Below, one piece after another: positions 8,058 through 16,534 of a stretch of 54,092 nucleotides of DNA; the stretch's first letter is position 1, and every line of letters starts with the position of its first letter. This DNA is from Lentisphaerota bacterium. Lineage in GTDB: Bacteria > Verrucomicrobiota > Kiritimatiellia > CAIQIC01 > Lenti-01. The notes under the pieces are model-generated. The model was not told the origin of the DNA and searched no databases. It saw only the letters and a program-made list of their open reading frames with translations. The stretch lies in the NCBI GenBank assembly GCA_012511885.1, contig JAAZFE010000045.1, positions 1 to 54,092 on the forward strand, written 5' to 3'. The position numbers and the translations under genes are program-made.

Positions 8058-10730
8058 TCAGGGGAGGGTCACCTGGATGTCCAGCGGCGCCGTCACCCCT
8101 GCCTCAAAAAGGGTGTTGGTCACGCTCCGCCCGTTCACCTCGAACACAAGCTCCTGGCCCGCCCCGCCCCCCCCCGCGGCAATGGAAAGTTGCGTTCCCT
8201 CCGCGTAGCGCCCCTTGTAAACACCGGCCTCCGGCCGGCCGTCAATCATCAGCGCCGGCAGCCCCCCGGCCGGGCGGACCGTCACTTCATGGAGGCTCTC
8301 CACTCGCAGCATGTCCGCCACCTTTCCGTACAGCAGTTCGGTCCGCTGGCGGAGATAGTCCTCGATGGTGGTGTAGTAGGCGACCTGCTTGGCCTTGAAT
8401 TCGTCCAGGGTCTGCTTGGTGGTGGCATCATCCTTTTGATTCAGCATGCCCTCCCACTCCAGATCCAGATAGGGCATGGCCCGGTCGCGATAAAAACGAA
8501 TCCGCCCGACCCAGCGCTCCACCGGGAAAACATGATTCAGATGCCGCTGCAACTCGGGGGCATAGACGGCCTGCACATACTCCTTGGAATGCAGCAGCGC
8601 CGCCACCGCGTTGCGCCGGTGCCCCGCCGGCGAGAACAGCAGCCGCTCGGGCGACATGTAAAACGAGCCGTCCAGATCCCAGGCCACCATGGTCCACTTG
8701 CGCGCCGGGTTTTTATAGTCCAACACAAACCACCCCTGCCCGCTGTCGCCCAGCCCCAGATAATGCAGCCCCGCGGCATACCGCGCGAGATAGGTCAAAT
8801 CCACAAATTCGGCCACTTGAGGCACCGTCACCGAGGATGTCGGCATCTCCTCGAGTTGGCCCCAGGTCCGGTTGAATTCATCCATTGTCCCCCACTTAAG
8901 CGGCGTGAGGGTCTTCTCCTTGACCACGTCCAGATCCAAGTGCCCGAACGTCTGCTCCAGATATTCCGGAGCATTGATGTCGTCCATGAGGTTGTAAAGA
9001 CCGTAGGGCCTCCCGTTCACATACATCATGGCGTGGCGGCGCCGGGGGGTCTGCACCCCGGCCGCCTCCATCACTTCGAACCCGATCGCGTTCTGCAAAT
9101 AGCCGCTGGACTGGGCCACGATGGAGGATGTTTTTTGCGGCCCCGGCGTGTCAAAAAACGGCTCCGGCCAGAACCGGCTTTCGTAACGGTTGCGGAACTT
9201 GAAACGGAAGTTTTGCTTGATCTGGAAGTTGCGCGTGGAGCGGCCCTGAATCCGCATGCCCGCCTTGCATGCCGCGGTGGGACACGCGGGATCAATGATC
9301 GTGATATGGCAGGGCTTCTCGGTCAGGACGCCCCGCAGGGTTTTGTTGGGCAGCAGGCCGAATTCCCCGCCGTCCAGATCGTCCTGCTCCATGATGACCG
9401 ACATGACCGGTAGCGGCCCAAGCTCCTCCAGCCAATAGGTGCGGTCCGTCGTGGCGCTCGGCCGGGCGCCGTCGCGGAACGATCGCGCCCGCACAAACGT
9501 GTTGCCGGTCAGCGCCAGCGGCCCGGCATAGGCCGCGCTCTTCCGGGTGGGCAGGCTGCCGTCGAGCGTGTAGCGCACGGTGTCGTTCGCGTCCGCGGGA
9601 GTCATAACGACCATCTGCCCCGCGGCCGCCCGCCCGCCCGGCAGACTCAGCTCCGGAGGCCGCGCGACCCCGGCCAGCGGCGTGTCCGCATCCGCGACCG
9701 CAAACATCCCCTTCCCCGCCGCGGTCCGCCGGTAGCTTTGCCCCGGCTGCAGCTCGGGAGTGGTCACATAGTCCAGCGGAACGCGCTGCGGCGTGAACAG
9801 GCCCACGAACTCGCCCGCCCGCCGAATCTTGAAGTTGAGATGGGCGTCCTGCTCGCCGCCGCCAAGCAGTTCGCCGCGCTTCATGACCACCACCCTGGCA
9901 ATGCGCACGGAACCCGCCAGCAGGCCGAATTCCAACTGCTGCGGACCGGCCTCCATCGGCCAATAGGCGTCCGTCCGCTCCGGATTGCGGATCTGGCAGA
10001 GGACGTATTCGGCCGATGGCTCCCGCTCCAGGATCACCGCCTGTCCGTTCACCAGGCAGGCCACCCGGCTGGTATGCGCCCCGACACCCCGCAACTCCAG
10101 CCAGAGCGCGACATCCTCCGGCTGCTCGAAGGTCAACGGGAAAACCAGCTTGCGGTTCGCGCTCAGCTTGTCCACGGACTCAAACCCAGCGCTGCTTTCG
10201 CACACCCGGCTCGCGATCAGCGGCATCTGCTCGCGGCCCATCGTCCAGAAGTTGGAACGGATCCCGTCCCGGGGCGTCAGGCTCGTCAAAGAATCCAGCG
10301 TGTCGCGCCCGTTGGCCCACAGCACCATGCTCGTTTTGGGCGGCAGCGTTATCGCCGGGAACACCCACTTGCGCGGCCGATGGGCCTTGTCGGTCAGGCT
10401 GCAACCATCCAGATTGAACGACCTCCCGGACTGGTTGTAAATCTCGATATAGTCATAGGCGTTGCCGCGGCAATCCACGGGGCCCGCCGGATTCGCCGTG
10501 CCCACCGCGGAAATGATCACGCTCGAAGTGATCGGGATGGCATTGGCGCTGCGCGCCGCGGCCATCGTGCGGTAGCTCCCGGCGCGGTTGACAATGCGGC
10601 CGCGCTTGGGGCGCAAGCGCAGGGCCGGCCCCCGCTCGCCCGACAGGAAAACCGCCGCGGCCAAAAACGCGCCCATCAGCACGGCCAGGCCGGCAAGGCG
10701 GCCAACCAACTTGGCGGATGACTTCGTCAA
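8058..10730 (-). CDS. CotH-family atypical kinase protein with N-terminal lamin-tail-like domain and a chitobiase/Fn3-like middle domain
   Basis: LTD-like YDYIEIYNQSGRSFNLDGCSLTD. CotH-like MRIQGRSTRNFQIKQNFRFKF and WDLDGSF. The proposed TTG start at 10730 overlaps the upstream TGA (TTGA) and gives a signal-anchor N-terminus. The longest ORF start is 10814. Confidence 0.85.
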   Translation of the reverse strand: MTKSSAKLVGRLAGLAVLMGAFLAAAVFLSGERGPALRLRPKRGRIVNRAGSYRTMAAARSANAIPITSSVIISAVGTANPAGPVDCRGNAYDYIEIYNQSGRSFNLDGCSLTDKAHRPRKWVFPAITLPPKTSMVLWANGRDTLDSLTSLTPRDGIRSNFWTMGREQMPLIASRVCESSAGFESVDKLSANRKLVFPLTFEQPEDVALWLELRGVGAHTSRVACLVNGQAVILEREPSAEYVLCQIRNPERTDAYWPMEAGPQQLEFGLLAGSVRIARVVVMKRGELLGGGEQDAHLNFKIRRAGEFVGLFTPQRVPLDYVTTPELQPGQSYRRTAAGKGMFAVADADTPLAGVARPPELSLPGGRAAAGQMVVMTPADANDTVRYTLDGSLPTRKSAAYAGPLALTGNTFVRARSFRDGARPSATTDRTYWLEELGPLPVMSVIMEQDDLDGGEFGLLPNKTLRGVLTEKPCHITIIDPACPTAACKAGMRIQGRSTRNFQIKQNFRFKFRNRYESRFWPEPFFDTPGPQKTSSIVAQSSGYLQNAIGFEVMEAAGVQTPRRRHAMMYVNGRPYGLYNLMDDINAPEYLEQTFGHLDLDVVKEKTLTPLKWGTMDEFNRTWGQLEEMPTSSVTVPQVAEFVDLTYLARYAAGLHYLGLGDSGQGWFVLDYKNPARKWTMVAWDLDGSFYMSPERLLFSPAGHRRNAVAALLHSKEYVQAVYAPELQRHLNHVFPVERWVGRIRFYRDRAMPYLDLEWEGMLNQKDDATTKQTLDEFKAKQVAYYTTIEDYLRQRTELLYGKVADMLRVESLHEVTVRPAGGLPALMIDGRPEAGVYKGRYAEGTQLSIAAGGGGAGQELVFEVNGRSVTNTLFEAGVTAPLDIQVTLP

Positions 10731-11422
10731 TGGGCCTCGGCGGGGCGGGAAAAGAAAACGTTGATCTTGTTGAGCGGGATGTCCGCGTGGAGATCCTTTT
10801 GCACTTCGCTCCACGCGCCCGACGCCAAATGCTTGAACACATACTGGATGCTCGTGGTGCCCGCCGACGAGGCAATGCTTTCCACCCGCAGACCGCGGAA
10901 ATGCCCCGCCAGACGCCGGTCCAGTTCGGCGCCGTGCTCACGGTAGGCCTCCTCGGCCAGGTTGACCATCAGCACGCCCTCGCGCCGCTTCAAGAGCAGG
11001 CCGCGCACCCGCGTCCAGTTGCGCAGCGCCAGCACCACAAAGGACGCCAGATACAGCAGCGCGATGAACAGGAAATTGAAGGTGGCAATCCCGATGGAAC
11101 CCGCGATCAGCAGCATCAAAAAACCGATCTCCTCCGGCTCCTTGATCGGCGTGCGAAAGCGCACAATGGACAGCGACCCCAGCAGCCCCAGCGAGAGCGG
11201 CAGCGACAACTGCACGCAGATGAACAGCAGCGTGATGGACGGCCCGATCAGCACGAACCCACGGTGGATCTGCGAGCCCGTGGCCTTGTTATCATAAAAA
11301 ATCACATACATCAGCTCCACGATCCACGCCGCCGCGATGGACAAAACCAGGCACAGCAGAAACCCCCGCAAATCCAACGTGAATCCCGCGCCGTCCGTAA
11401 TGTTCAACAATAGTTCTTTCAT
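10727..11422 (-). CDS. DUF4956-family membrane protein
   Basis: MKELLLNITDG... with LSLGLLGSLSIVRFRTPIKEPEEIGF, typical of DUF4956. ATG at 11422. Confidence 0.85.
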   Translation of the reverse strand: MKELLLNITDGAGFTLDLRGFLLCLVLSIAAAWIVELMYVIFYDNKATGSQIHRGFVLIGPSITLLFICVQLSLPLSLGLLGSLSIVRFRTPIKEPEEIGFLMLLIAGSIGIATFNFLFIALLYLASFVVLALRNWTRVRGLLLKRREGVLMVNLAEEAYREHGAELDRRLAGHFRGLRVESIASSAGTTSIQYVFKHLASGAWSEVQKDLHADIPLNKINVFFSRPAEAH

Positions 11423-11438
11423 GCGTTGTCCTCCGCGC

Positions 11439-12134
11439 TCATTCCAGCCGCATGCATTCGGCATACTTCGAAAAGGCGCTCTTTTTTATCACATACCGGT
11501 TCAAAACGTGGAGCGGCGGCGGCAACACGCGGGCCGCGAATCCCTTGACCTCCAGCACACTGTAGCGCGCCGTGCCCGGGCGGTTGCCCCGCGGGCGCTC
11601 GCTGCTCCAGTTGGACAAGCAGATCTCCGAGTCCAGCGCGATCCGATAACCCGTGGCCATGTCCACAAAACGGCTGCGCAAATAGCTGATCACGCAAACC
11701 GGCGCGAACGCAACCAGATCGGGCACGGCCGGCGGCGCCAGCCAGTCGGTCAGACACAGGTCCCGGACCGCCGCGGCGGGTTCCCGGTGCAGCGCCGCGA
11801 CATCCAGCGCCATGGGCACGCGGGTCTTCCACGACCGGGCGCCCTCCTTGCTTTTGACCTCGAGGTAGGCCTTGTCCGAAAACTCCTTTTCCAGCTCGTC
11901 GGTGTACCAGCGCAGGCGAACCTTCTGCTTCAGGTATTCGCCCTGCTCCGACTGGCGCAGGGCGTTCATCCGCAGGGAATCGTAGTAGAGGCTGTGCACC
12001 CGGTTCTCGCCGTAGGCGGGATCCGGCGCGCACAGATGATTCAGCCAGGCCAAGGCCTGGGCCGTATAAATCTTCGGCAGGACAAACTTGGCCTCGTGCC
12101 GGGCCGGCGCGGCCGGATGACTCAAAGCGCTCAT
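11439..12134 (-). CDS. VTC-domain (polyphosphate polymerase-like, CYTH/triphosphate-tunnel superfamily) protein
   Basis: HEAKFVLP...RVHSLYYDS...KVRLRWY...YLEVKSK pattern of alternating basic/acidic beta strands. The ATG overlaps the upstream gene stop (ATGA at 12131-12134). Confidence 0.85.
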   Translation of the reverse strand: MSALSHPAAPARHEAKFVLPKIYTAQALAWLNHLCAPDPAYGENRVHSLYYDSLRMNALRQSEQGEYLKQKVRLRWYTDELEKEFSDKAYLEVKSKEGARSWKTRVPMALDVAALHREPAAAVRDLCLTDWLAPPAVPDLVAFAPVCVISYLRSRFVDMATGYRIALDSEICLSNWSSERPRGNRPGTARYSVLEVKGFAARVLPPPLHVLNRYVIKKSAFSKYAECMRLE

Positions 12135-14214: not shown

Positions 14215-14955
14215 TCAGCGTTTCCGCTCCCAAAGGCGTTCGCCGCCCACCCGCCTGACATAGCGCGCCACCTTGTCGTAGAGCTTCCAAGCGCCGTCCA
14301 GCAGCATCTCCGTTTGCGACACATAAAGCGCCGCCGCCTCCTGCCGCGCCCGCACATCTTCCGGGGATAGCGGAATCATCCGCGCACGCCAGCGCCAAGG
14401 GGGCCAGACCACCCTGCGCACCGCCAAAAAACGGGTCGCATAGGGGAAATCCTCGTAATAGAGCAGGTCCGGCCCAAACACCTTCTCCGCCGCCCGCCGA
14501 ACCAGCCAGTGGTCCACATGCCCGCCCACCCCGAGAGGCGCCACCACCCGCCCGGCCGGCGGCAGGTCCCGCAGAACCTGCTCCCAAACTGTCGTGCCGG
14601 CCTCCTCCGGATGCGGCGGCCCCAAAACATCTTGCAGTCGAGGATACAGCGGGGTGCCGTCCGTCCGCCACCGATACATGGCATCCGGCTTCTTCCCGTG
14701 CAGAAAGTCCGCGCCCAGCCGGGCACACGCCCGGCGGTCTTCCTCGCGGCGCGGCTCGCATGAGTTGCCCAGCTTCCACGCCGCGTGCATCTCCCGCGCC
14801 AAAGGGGTAAGCTCCCCCTCGCAGTCGCCGGCCATCAGGGTGGCCACCAGAACGCGCTCCCCCCGGCGGGTGGCCGCCGCGATCTGCCCGCCGCAAGACA
14901 AAACCACATCATCCAGATGCGGCGACAGATATAGGGCATGATACGGTTCGGACAT
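14215..14955 (-). CDS. PIG-L/LmbE-family N-acetylglucosaminyl deacetylase
   Basis: From the ATG at 14955: MSEPYHALYLSPHLDDVVLSCGG (PIG-L signature), later HVDH. The upstream part of ORF 14215..15150 is repeat DNA. Confidence 0.85.
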   Translation of the reverse strand: MSEPYHALYLSPHLDDVVLSCGGQIAAATRRGERVLVATLMAGDCEGELTPLAREMHAAWKLGNSCEPRREEDRRACARLGADFLHGKKPDAMYRWRTDGTPLYPRLQDVLGPPHPEEAGTTVWEQVLRDLPPAGRVVAPLGVGGHVDHWLVRRAAEKVFGPDLLYYEDFPYATRFLAVRRVVWPPWRWRARMIPLSPEDVRARQEAAALYVSQTEMLLDGAWKLYDKVARYVRRVGGERLWERKR

Positions 14956-14978
14956 GGCGCTTGGAGCTCCCCCGAAAC

Positions 14979-15080
14979 TTTCCACGCCATGAAAAAAATA
15001 GCAACCGGTTTTCCACGCCATGGAAACTTTTTTGCAGACTCTTCCACGCCATGGAAAATAGTTTTCCACGCCGTGGAAAA
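14979..15080. promoter_or_regulatory. Array of four palindromic TTCCACG-N-C(A/G)TGGAA motifs (candidate operator or promoter-associated sites)
   Basis: Motif centres at 14987, 15018, 15049 and 15071 (spacing 31, 31, 22 bp). The copy at 15062-15080 is a perfect 19-bp palindrome TTTTCCACGCCGTGGAAAA. Confidence 0.55.
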
Positions 15081-15089
15081 ATACGCCCG

Positions 15090-15240
15090 AAAAAACACCC
15101 CAAAAGCACCCATTCCGTCCCTCCCCCCAAAAACCCAAAAAATACCCCAAAAATCGTCAAAAACACCGATTTTCACCCGTTTTTGACCCGTTTTTGACCC
15201 AAAAACACCCTTTTTTGACCCGTTTTGCCCGAAAACTTTT
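15090..15240. promoter_or_regulatory. Phased A/T-tract block (predicted curved DNA) in divergent intergenic region
   Basis: A or T runs start at 15090,15102,15129,15137,15149,15159,15170,15180,15191,15201,15211,15223,15232, mostly 9-12 bp apart. Confidence 0.5.
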
Positions 15241-15255
15241 CCACGGCGTGGAAAA
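15237..15255. promoter_or_regulatory. Fifth palindromic motif copy (perfect 19-bp palindrome TTTTCCACGGCGTGGAAAA)
   Basis: Exact inverted symmetry around G15246. It lies ~55-75 bp upstream of the candidate start codons of the GT gene on the + strand. Confidence 0.55.
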
Positions 15256-15267
15256 TCCGGAGCCCAC

Positions 15268-15295
15268 GTCAACTTCCACCTGTCAACTTCCACCT
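15268..15295 (+). repeat. Tandem direct repeat 2 x GTCAACTTCCACCT
   Basis: Two identical adjacent 14-mers. Each contains the TTCCAC half-site of the nearby palindrome. Confidence 0.6.
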
Positions 15296-15307
15296 TGTCT
15301 CGCCGCC

Positions 15308-16534
15308 ATGTGCGTGGTTGACTCCGCACGCATGGCCCCGGCACATTTTTGGCCCCGACAATATAGGCAGTTTGCCTCCCTGACCCGCCGCATTGTACGA
15401 CGGCTGCGCGGGGTCAATCAGCGCTGCGTCACCCTGCCCCCTCTCGAATCCCCCCCCCAGCGCGGACGAGTGCTGCTTTCCTATATTCTGGATGGCGTTC
15501 TGGTCTCCCGCGAAGAGGATTTACCCCACTCCCATGTCAATTTTTGGGAGACCTGGGCCATGGCGCGGGCCTTCCGCGAAGAAAGCTATACGGTGGATGT
15601 CATCCATTGGACCCGCCGCGCCCCCCTCCCCCGCACCGACTACGACATTTTCGTGGACGTCCGCCGCAATTTCGATCGTCACGCGGCGCAGTTGCCGGCC
15701 ACCTGCCTGAAAATCGCCCACATGGACACCGCCCACTGGCGCGTGCACAACGGCAACCAGTTGCGGCGGCTCGATGATCTGCGCCGGCGTCGGGGCATTG
15801 CCCTGGCCCCCTTCAAGATGGTGGAAGAAAACAACGCCGCCGAAAACGCGGACCTCATCACCGTCCTTGGTAACCAGTTCACCATGGACACCTTTGCCTA
15901 TGCCCAAAAGCCCATCCGGCGCGTCCGGCTGTCTAATGCCTTTGACTATCCCTATCCCGCCGAACGTGACATTGCTACCGCGTGTCGCAACTTCCTGTGG
16001 TTCGGCAGCGAGGGCTTCATCCACAAGGGCCTGGATTTGGTTCTCGAGGCCTTCGCGGGCCTGCCGGCGCACCGCCTGACCGTCTGCGGCCCCATCGAGC
16101 GGGAACCCGCCTTCCGCAAGGCCTTCGCCGACCTGCTGTATCAGACCCCCAACATCCGCACCTTGGGCTGGGTGGATGTCGCTGGCGCGGATTTCCTCGA
16201 TCTGGCCCGGCAGCATATCGCCATGGTCTATCCCTCCTGCTCCGAGGGCGGCGGAGGGTGCGTCATCACGGCCATGCACGCCGGACTCCTTCCCGTCGTC
16301 ACCCGCGAGGCCAGCGTGGATGTCTCGCCGGACTGCGGCGTTCTGCTCCCCGATGCCTCTGTGGAGGCGCTCCGCGCCGCTGTCCTCGAGCTCTCCTCGG
16401 CCCCTCCCGGCCGCCTCGACACCATGGCGCGCGCTGCTTGGACCTGGGCGCGCGAACACCACTCCCGTGAACGCTTTCAACGCGAATACCGCGACCTTGT
16501 CAACTCTCTGGCCGACCAACCAAGGAAAGACTGA
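15308..16534 (+). CDS. Family 1 (GT-B fold) glycosyltransferase
   Basis: C-terminal FLWFGSEGFIHKGLDL...YPSCSEGGGGCVITAMHAGLLPV. Start is at ATG 15308 or 15332. The upstream part of ORF 15194.. is repeat DNA. Confidence 0.8.
   Translation: MCVVDSARMAPAHFWPRQYRQFASLTRRIVRRLRGVNQRCVTLPPLESPPQRGRVLLSYILDGVLVSREEDLPHSHVNFWETWAMARAFREESYTVDVIHWTRRAPLPRTDYDIFVDVRRNFDRHAAQLPATCLKIAHMDTAHWRVHNGNQLRRLDDLRRRRGIALAPFKMVEENNAAENADLITVLGNQFTMDTFAYAQKPIRRVRLSNAFDYPYPAERDIATACRNFLWFGSEGFIHKGLDLVLEAFAGLPAHRLTVCGPIEREPAFRKAFADLLYQTPNIRTLGWVDVAGADFLDLARQHIAMVYPSCSEGGGGCVITAMHAGLLPVVTREASVDVSPDCGVLLPDASVEALRAAVLELSSAPPGRLDTMARAAWTWAREHHSRERFQREYRDLVNSLADQPRKD

Follow-up and report, generated by a model that had tools for sequence, protein, structure and literature searches.

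Helically phased palindromes between genes of Kiritimatiellia: a dispersed repeat family and putative binding sites for a conserved protein

We describe a family of 19-bp palindromes that stand in regularly spaced arrays between genes of Kiritimatiellia. The starting point was a stretch of 54,092 nucleotides from a Lentisphaerota bacterium (assembly GCA_012511885.1, contig JAAZFE010000045.1, positions 1 to 54,092; hereafter the window), in which five copies lie between a gene for a PIG-L/LmbE-family deacetylase and a divergently oriented glycosyltransferase gene. The same unit recurs in about 20 species, with half-sites that scarcely vary, neighbors set in a 22- or 31-bp register, and arrays retained at orthologous loci. 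We suggest, with a confidence that is about evenly balanced, that this is a dispersed family of phased sites for a putative conserved, probably dimeric DNA-binding protein, a family that resembles repetitive extragenic palindromic (REP) sequences and bacterial interspersed mosaic elements (BIMEs) yet would be distinct from them. An earlier note on the window, made from its letters alone, had read the five copies either as an operator array controlling the two flanking operons or as a lineage-specific promoter-associated repeat. The observation is real, and more general than first thought.

Results

Sequence and spacing of the units

The consensus of the unit is the palindrome TTTTCCA-YRSYR-TGGAAAA (Y, pyrimidine; R, purine; S, C or G). 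In a set of 254 units, for which up to six mismatches were allowed beside a good unit, the arms TTTTCCA and TGGAAAA are 98-100% invariant (positions 3-7 and 13-17). Variation is confined to the five central positions, Y8, R9, S10, Y11, and R12, and consists of transitions only. These changes fall on the two CpGs of the perfect palindrome, with C replaced by T or G by A, and the central base is always C or G. Such CpG-limited transitions could reflect the tolerance of a protein, or cytosine methylation followed by deamination. No compensatory change was seen in the outer stem in any of the 254 units, and the T8/A12 double change, which restores pairing, was observed 15 times where about 30 were expected. 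Because compensatory changes are missing and the pairing doubles are depleted, what is conserved is the sequence itself and not merely the ability to pair, a direction that is clear despite the shared ancestry of the units.

The spacing of the units is as regular as their sequence. In about 130 pairs of neighbors from the carrier loci, the start-to-start distance is 22 bp (55 pairs), 31 bp (58), 30 bp (13), or 32 bp (4), and the few other distances are mostly sums of 22 and 30-32 bp. The gaps between 19-bp units are accordingly 3 bp or about 12 bp, and arrays range from 1 to 9 units. The sequence of the spacers is free: among pairs at 31 bp, 59 of 60 spacers are distinct, with only A/T-rich ends and a G+C-rich middle in common. 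Within a unit, the half-sites TTCCA and TGGAA are inverted and 10 bp apart; between units, 22 bp is about 2.1 helical turns and 31 bp about 2.95. The two-fold symmetry and phasing, which the earlier note had remarked on in the five window copies, are thus no local accident and hold as a general rule across these pairs, drawn from about 20 species. Symmetric units in a 22/31-bp register fit a dimeric protein that would bind one face of the DNA. Asymmetric variants of the unit show no strand preference relative to the direction of transcription (43 versus 34); within arrays, their orientation is uniform in 31 cases and mixed in 16.

Taxonomic distribution

The earlier note had proposed a genome-wide pattern search. 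A scan for the 17-mer TTTCCACGSCRTGGAAA in a collection with one genome per prokaryotic species, which makes matches between loci matches between species, returned at least 117 stretches. About 75 of the matches listed come from metagenome-assembled genomes (MAGs) labeled Kiritimatiellae or Kiritimatiellia, 'Verrucomicrobia', and in one case each 'Opitutia' and 'Lentisphaerae', and these are mostly arrays. The Kiritimatiellia and 'Verrucomicrobia' carriers among the matches listed amount to about 19-20 species-level assemblies, several of which have 5-14 separate loci. JAHDSS01, CAZHSS01, and CAYNSH01 are among the carriers, and no copy was seen in the lineages of L208 and L211. Each stretch from another taxon among the matches listed contains a single isolated site, never an array. 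As a negative control, 503 kb of distant metagenome PIG-L loci (relatives at most 46% identical) do not contain the motif. In 2.9 million viral contigs (IMG/VR) it was found as 13 singletons only, and we therefore rejected an origin in phages or mobile elements.

The window itself belongs with the carriers. Its NusA is 82-88% identical to proteins that, where named, come from Kiritimatiellia MAGs, and the assemblies of the window species come from anaerobic digesters and biogas fermenters. As arrays among the matches listed are confined to Kiritimatiellia-type MAGs and other taxa have isolated sites, the family is specific to a lineage within the Kiritimatiellia. The motif is thus widespread in a class of the Planctomycetes-Verrucomicrobia-Chlamydiae (PVC) group, as the earlier note had surmised, and searches of the literature by sequence and by keyword found no paper with the motif or with such repeats in Kiritimatiellia. 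So far as these searches show, it is uncharacterized, and the arrays appear to form a family of phased, palindromic repeats between genes that has not been described before.

Genomic context of the arrays

Both flanks of 82 arrays were examined with a heuristic that assigns open reading frames (ORFs) by their G+C content at third codon positions. Where both flanks could be classified, 36 arrays lie between co-oriented (tandem) genes, 6 between convergent genes, and 6 between divergent genes; the remainder are ambiguous or at contig ends. Pfam domains reaching the C-termini confirmed the convergent arrangement at L097 (chromate transporter and NtrC-type regulator), L070 (ferritin-like protein and NAD-binding protein), and L014 (GT1 and PIG-L-domain protein). 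Many arrays start 3-20 nt past a stop codon, with 10-35 nt left between their end and the next start codon, and some operon-internal gaps, such as trpG-trpD (L093), are wholly filled by an array. The adjoining genes encode ABC transporters, aconitase, trpD, dnaE, ferritin, epimerases, and hydrolases, and have no common function. In about 17 ambiguous cases an ORF runs into the array; 6 of these were inspected and none lies clearly within a gene, which is no proof that none does. Of the arrays at about 80 places, spread over about 20 species, none was verified inside a gene.

Since arrays flank genes in all orientations and genes of unrelated kinds, a promoter-specific element and an operator of a single regulon are both ruled out. 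The earlier proposal of an operator dedicated to the PIG-L and glycosyltransferase operons fails on the arrays that lie between convergent genes, inside operons, and beside unrelated genes. The proposal of a lineage-specific promoter-associated repeat stands as regards the lineage and falls as regards promoters, which are lacking between convergent genes.

Conservation between species

In nine groups of loci, the flanking proteins are orthologous (57-99% identity) and an array occupies the same gap. The units at these sites are kept, often with the same central variant, while the spacers and the surrounding intergenic DNA diverge; the robust part of this comparison is the retention of units at matching positions, since the choice of columns by motif inflates the identities computed per column. 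The number and order of units can differ even so. Exactly one 22-bp unit separates L095 from L099, whose flanks are 98-99% identical; the orthologous gap contains three units in L020 and six in L102; and in L055 and L068 the 22- and 31-bp steps come in different order. Two neighboring units share one central change in the comparison of L020 with L102, and this concerted change suggests local conversion.

Two further loci carry other repeats beside their arrays. At L045:3600-4620 (JAFTAH010000131.1), a gene for a small predicted membrane protein has an array on either side, and one and the same stretch of about 100 bp follows both arrays, which we take from the sequence to be a segmental duplication that includes an array; two tandem copies of GGTGGTCAAATTTTG follow the second array, just before the next gene. 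At L055:1540-1625 (the 'Lentisphaerae' MAG), the array and the next start codon have a tandem repeat of another kind, TTGGATATTGAATA-like, between them.

We also compared orthologous PIG-L loci, ten in all, with pairwise identities of 51-85%. An array lies directly upstream of PIG-L in four of them (the window, L118, L210, and L230; PIG-L 61-80% identical), with the common layout unit-3-unit-12-unit-12-unit, except that L230 has 4 for 3 and L210 has one extra unit. The PIG-L start codon follows 14-31 nt past the array in these four carriers, and the similarity of their spacers is only residual. That four species keep a four-unit layout at this distance from the start makes a local regulatory effect on PIG-L plausible. 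The other six loci (L208, L209, L211, L227, L228, and L229) have no array at this position; L209 has a degenerate array elsewhere.

The repeats fragment short-read assemblies. In the window species, 5 of 10 contigs end at the center of the perfect palindrome 15062-15080. The independent short-read assemblies L004, L005, L006, and L008 end at 15071, 116 nt upstream of the PIG-L ATG, and at least seven arrays of other MAGs are at most 160 bp from a contig start.

The PIG-L/glycosyltransferase intergenic region

All five copies of TTCCAYG-N-CRTGGAA given in the earlier note were found again at 14978-15255, with positions that agree to within 1-2 bp and with start-to-start spacings that hold (Table 1). 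The pattern TTCCACGNCGTGGAA, with at most two mismatches, has 5 matches in the 54-kb window, and every one falls in this intergenic region; shuffling that preserves dinucleotides gave a mean of 0.25 matches, and none of 100 shuffles reached 5. The gap between the two genes, 14955 to 15308, is 352 bp long and holds all five units. Unit 4 is closest to PIG-L, its end 22 nt from the ATG, and about 8 nt separate the end of the four-unit array from the Shine-Dalgarno sequence of PIG-L. At the other side, unit 5 lies 52 nt before the annotated glycosyltransferase ATG. Both flanking genes are as the earlier note had them, and independent assemblies give identical gene calls; the glycosyltransferase heads a sugar-nucleotide/glycosyltransferase operon. 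No sigma-70-type promoter was found in the intergenic region. The spurious periodic peptides that the repeats had been said to produce are indeed present in the ORF translations (FHAVEK, FPRRGK, SMAWK, and FHGVEN), and the earlier note's remark that such peptides are annotated elsewhere as hypothetical proteins is weakly borne out by one hypothetical protein in the Joint Genome Institute (JGI) data that matches an array-derived ORF.

Table 1. Palindromic units, flanking genes, and other repeats of the intergenic region (window coordinates)
Feature	Position	Strand	Description
Unit 4	14978..14996	.	Degenerate palindrome CTTTCCACGCCATGAAAAA, 2 mismatches in 15-mer core
Unit 3	15009..15027	.	TTTTCCACGCCATGGAAAC, 31 bp from unit 4
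Unit 2	15040..15058	.	TCTTCCACGCCATGGAAAA, 31 bp from unit 3
Unit 1	15062..15080	.	Perfect 9-1-9 palindrome TTTTCCACGCCGTGGAAAA, 22 bp from unit 2
Unit 5	15237..15255	.	Perfect palindrome TTTTCCACGGCGTGGAAAA, 175 bp from unit 1
PIG-L/LmbE-family deacetylase gene	14215..14955	-	Start abutted by four-unit array
Group-1 (GT-B) glycosyltransferase gene	15308..16534	+	First gene of divergent polysaccharide operon
A/T-tract zone	15081..15236	.	About 11-bp periodicity; between unit 1 and unit 5
14-bp tandem direct repeat	15268..15295	+	GTCAACTTCCACCT, two copies; just before glycosyltransferase start

The A/T-tract zone was found only at the locus of this species and stands outside the dispersed palindrome family. 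It contains GGGTCAAAAAC three times on the minus strand (15179-15221). A deletion removes 41 bp from the GGGTCAAAAAC zone in one assembly of the window species (L009), and another contig set of the species (L003) switches to unrelated upstream sequence exactly at the A/T tracts. This suggests that a variable polysaccharide locus has a boundary here that is prone to recombination.

A separate conserved block lies next to the glycosyltransferase. The second copy of GTCAACTTCCACCT is part of this block, CAACTTCCACCTTG...GCGTGGTTGACTCC (window 15284-15325; on the other strand AGTCAASCACGC...CAAGGYGGAAGTT), the first part of which is tandemly duplicated in the window (15268-15295). The block is kept in the window, L230, L208, and L209, and thus in syntenic loci both with and without the palindrome array, and we consider it a better candidate for a locus-specific control element than the array. 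The annotated glycosyltransferase ATG (15308) falls within this block, so that the gene may in fact start at ATG 15332.

Farther from the array, window 8058-12134 encodes a CotH kinase-like protein (with lamin-tail and chitobiase C-terminal domains), a DUF4956 protein, and a VTC-domain protein, a conserved block that adjoins the polysaccharide genes. Enolase, RadC, and the nusA-infB-rbfA-truB operon are found elsewhere in the window. The GC skew is negative across window 1-54092 (about -0.05 to -0.28), independent of gene strand, which is consistent with one replichore arm.

Discussion

Half-sites that are invariant in about 20 species, the lack of covariation, and units that outlast their spacers at orthologous sites together argue for a trans-acting, sequence-specific factor. 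Recognition of double-stranded DNA by a dimer is favored by the inverted half-sites 10 bp apart, the pyrimidine-purine center, the fixed register, and the absence of strand bias. The sequences establish the family, with its register, invariance, distribution, and retention at orthologous loci; recognition by a protein, action on double-stranded DNA, and any effect on gene expression are inferred. In the mechanism that we propose, each 19-bp unit would be the binding site for a dimer of a putative conserved protein, with two invariant half-sites of 5-7 bp contacted one helical turn apart and flexible pyrimidine-purine steps at the center. The 22/31 register would place adjacent dimers on one face of the helix, which could allow cooperative binding or wrapping of the DNA, as at phased ArgR, NrdR, or Lrp sites. 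Given that arrays occupy every kind of gene boundary, the putative factor may be global or architectural rather than the regulator of one operon.

At the PIG-L locus, occupancy of the four-unit array would be expected to affect PIG-L expression, since the promoter or leader must overlap an array that ends so close to the Shine-Dalgarno sequence. It is also conceivable, as pure conjecture, that a loop forms from the four-unit array to unit 5, 175 bp away across intrinsically bendable A-tract DNA, and such looping might affect the divergent glycosyltransferase operon as well.

Several observations weigh against this mechanism. No candidate for the protein was found: Pfam scans show no transcription factor in the window, where the earlier note, too, had seen no regulator gene, and no recurrent regulator gene was found among the flanking genes examined. 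The spacing of 22 bp is no exact multiple of 10.5. Arrays that are transcribed, whether operon-internal or after stop codons, would form very stable RNA structures (-50 to -62 kcal/mol). Because six of the ten orthologous loci have no array, the array is dispensable for PIG-L. The intergenic placement derives from the listed carrier stretches and not from whole-genome copy number or enrichment, and units within an array share descent, so that counts of units are non-independent observations.

Among known systems, the family is closest in kind to REPs and BIMEs and in geometry to phased operator arrays, and it departs from both in their defining features. The tandem ARG boxes of ArgR are 18 bp long and 3 bp apart, paired NrdR boxes lie about 31-32 bp apart, and Lrp sites are three turns apart. 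The palindrome arrays share with these systems symmetric sites of 15-19 bp, half-sites one turn apart, neighbors two to three turns apart on one face, and a spacing that is conserved where the spacer sequence is free. The two-fold symmetric 9-1-9 unit and the helical phasing (22 and 30-32 bp) are what an operator at a single locus would have too. Unlike ArgR, NrdR, and Lrp sites, which belong to known regulators and to the promoters of a defined regulon, the palindrome arrays are also found between convergent genes, inside operons, and beside unrelated genes, beyond the promoters of any one coherent regulon.

Other comparisons are looser. The half-site TGGAAA/TTTCCA of what we take to be the IclR box, TGGAAATNATTTCCA, equals the invariant part of the unit, which we regard as a lead only. 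An IclR-like orientation of half-sites appears at the junctions of 22-bp doublets (TGGAAAA-N3-TTTTCCA); the spacing is 7-3-7 or 7-5-7 rather than 7-1-7, however, and no IclR-family gene was seen near the arrays. In the sopC centromere of the F plasmid, tandem 43-bp units each contain a short inverted repeat bound by SopB. The palindrome arrays resemble it in having tandem units, each with a palindrome at a fixed period, and would resemble it further if they bind a protein as we propose. Plasmid centromeres are single loci beside par genes, in contrast to dispersed arrays of 1-9 units with no par genes nearby.

An element that works as RNA or as a single strand, in the manner of REPs, is the alternative that we take most seriously, although we think it unlikely. 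Neighboring units, once transcribed, would pair into long hairpins that stabilize the mRNA upstream, attenuate or terminate transcription, or offer processing sites at gene boundaries, for example to RNase III, and a sequence-specific RNA- or single-stranded DNA-binding factor would account for the invariance of the units. The positions of many arrays, just past stop codons and filling operon-internal gaps, are those expected of such an element, and arrays between convergent genes sit where bidirectional terminators lie. The arrays fold more stably than shuffled sequences (z -4.8 to -7.1); doublets at 22 bp would give stems of roughly 19 bp, and these doublets are flagged as terminator-like, the T-run of the next unit following the hairpin. 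A single unit, in contrast, folds weakly (-4.5 to -6.9 kcal/mol) into a hairpin whose stem is A/U-rich and which is followed by an A-run and no U-tract, so that in a comparison with intrinsic terminators only the 22-bp doublets look alike, and arrays are also found upstream of first genes, including those in divergent regions. The total lack of covariation in 254 units, together with the depletion of doubles that restore pairing, speaks against selection on a stem. Nor is there a preference for the strand that would form G-U over C-A (43 versus 34), and RNA loops offer no obvious reason for so strict a 22/31 register. Rfam gave no match in the window region up to E = 1 and none at gathering score in nine array-bearing loci, and a known RNA family was rejected on this basis.

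A broader version of protein binding is that the arrays act as genome-wide punctuation in Kiritimatiellia. We regard this as doubtful. An oligomerizing protein on phased palindromes at gene and operon boundaries might serve as an insulator, roadblock, terminator, or domain organizer, a DNA-level counterpart of REP elements or intrinsic terminators, and the PIG-L array would then be a copy co-opted for gene control.

It is similarly doubtful that the family is a selfish repeat without host function, a non-autonomous REP-like element or miniature inverted-repeat transposable element (MITE), which a transposase, or else local slippage with gene conversion, would have spread and which accumulates between genes, where it is tolerated. 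Much about the arrays has this character. They are dispersed, intergenic, and multi-copy, and they break assemblies; close relatives differ by whole units (L095/L099 and L020/L102), variants within an array are mostly oriented alike (31 uniform versus 16 mixed), neighboring units change in concert in L020 versus L102, and the L045 duplication takes in an array. As in REPs and BIMEs, the palindromes are short (19 bp, against 20-40 bp in REPs), extragenic at about 80 places, and clustered, often past stop codons and inside operons; their copy number varies between relatives, and their transcripts can form hairpins. In E. coli, BIMEs are also binding sites for IHF and gyrase. REP families are known in PVC bacteria (PMC3733652).

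The differences are as marked. Two REP superfamilies are defined by a GTAG or CGTC tetranucleotide tag at one end (PMC3733652). The flanks of the palindrome units are T-runs and A-runs, and their frequency tables show neither tag. The units are near-perfectly symmetric (9-1-9), whereas REPs are imperfect palindromes with a bulge, and one sequence is common to about 20 species, whereas REP sequences are species-specific. BIMEs alternate in orientation and have few, conserved linkers; the orientations here are mostly uniform, and the linkers, all different, are free in sequence and fixed in length.

To look for a transposase of the REP-associated tyrosine transposase (RAYT) type, we compared E. 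coli RayT by phmmer with all ORFs in 630 kb of carrier loci, a search of limited sensitivity and sample. It found one relative, L103:303-975 (CAZHSS010000132.1), with HUH and tyrosine motifs. This gene is flanked on both sides (1-1350) by different palindrome arrays, GTAG-tagged GCACGCGACAGAGCSGCGTGCTAC with a period of 42-45 bp, which makes L103 a canonical REPtron; TTCCACG arrays are present in the same genome. The GTAG-tagged GCACGCGACAGAGCSGCGTGCTAC is absent from the window. As the only RAYT-like gene found adjoins its own, different REP, we rejected a RAYT-mobilized REP as the identity of the palindromes. The earlier note had considered a mobile unit with defined ends to be at odds with its reading of independent sites; we found no conserved ends, tags, terminal repeats, target duplications, or cognate transposase, and spacers that all differ, so that units have not been copied together with their surroundings. 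A MITE was rejected because nothing is conserved beyond the 19-mer and the array ends lack target duplications, and a CRISPR array because the spacers are 3 or 12 bp, where CRISPR repeats of 23-47 bp have unique spacers of similar length, and Pfam scans of the window show no cas genes. Finally, about 20 species keep the 19-mer, orthologous sites retain it even where the proteins on either side share only 57-64% identity, and the PIG-L layout is conserved as well; neutral selfish copies should have decayed over such divergence, which makes them unlikely.

Another reading is an operator specific to this locus, through which a single repressor or activator would govern the divergent operons of PIG-L and the glycosyltransferase in this polysaccharide cluster. 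The array does lie between divergent starts, four species keep the four-unit layout upstream of PIG-L, and the L014 array adjoins a GT1 and a PIG-L-domain gene. The distribution of the family largely refutes this idea, which we regard as very improbable: like arrays stand beside aconitase, trpD, dnaE, ABC transporters, and ferritin, between convergent genes, and inside operons, the window has no regulator gene, and several of the syntenic PIG-L loci without an array keep the other, glycosyltransferase-side block. Least credible of all is a cluster of DnaA boxes or a replication-origin element, suggested by the resemblance of the half-site TTTTCCACG/TTTTCCACA to the DnaA box TTWTNCACA (the variant TTTTCCACA fits what we take to be its relaxed consensus) and by the clustering of sites in an AT-richer intergenic region with A-tracts, and rejected because the skew does not switch at 15 kb, gene scans of the window show no dnaA or dnaN nearby, many arrays per genome lie at unrelated places, and the C of CAC, a position that DnaA boxes keep, is T in a third of half-sites.

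Phased sites for a conserved DNA-binding protein thus remain the reading that we favor for the palindrome arrays, and the family has practical weight of its own, since it breaks short-read assemblies, yields spurious ORFs, and marks gene boundaries. Because a canonical GTAG-REP/RAYT unit coexists in the same lineage, the family can also be compared cleanly with REP/RAYT systems. In digesters, rumen, and sediments, Kiritimatiellia abound as degraders of polysaccharides, most of them uncultured, and to our knowledge nothing has been learned of their gene regulation or chromosome organization. A 19-bp sequence and a 22/31 register kept across about 20 species would imply a conserved trans-acting factor in these bacteria, one that could be fished out directly with the palindrome as an oligonucleotide.

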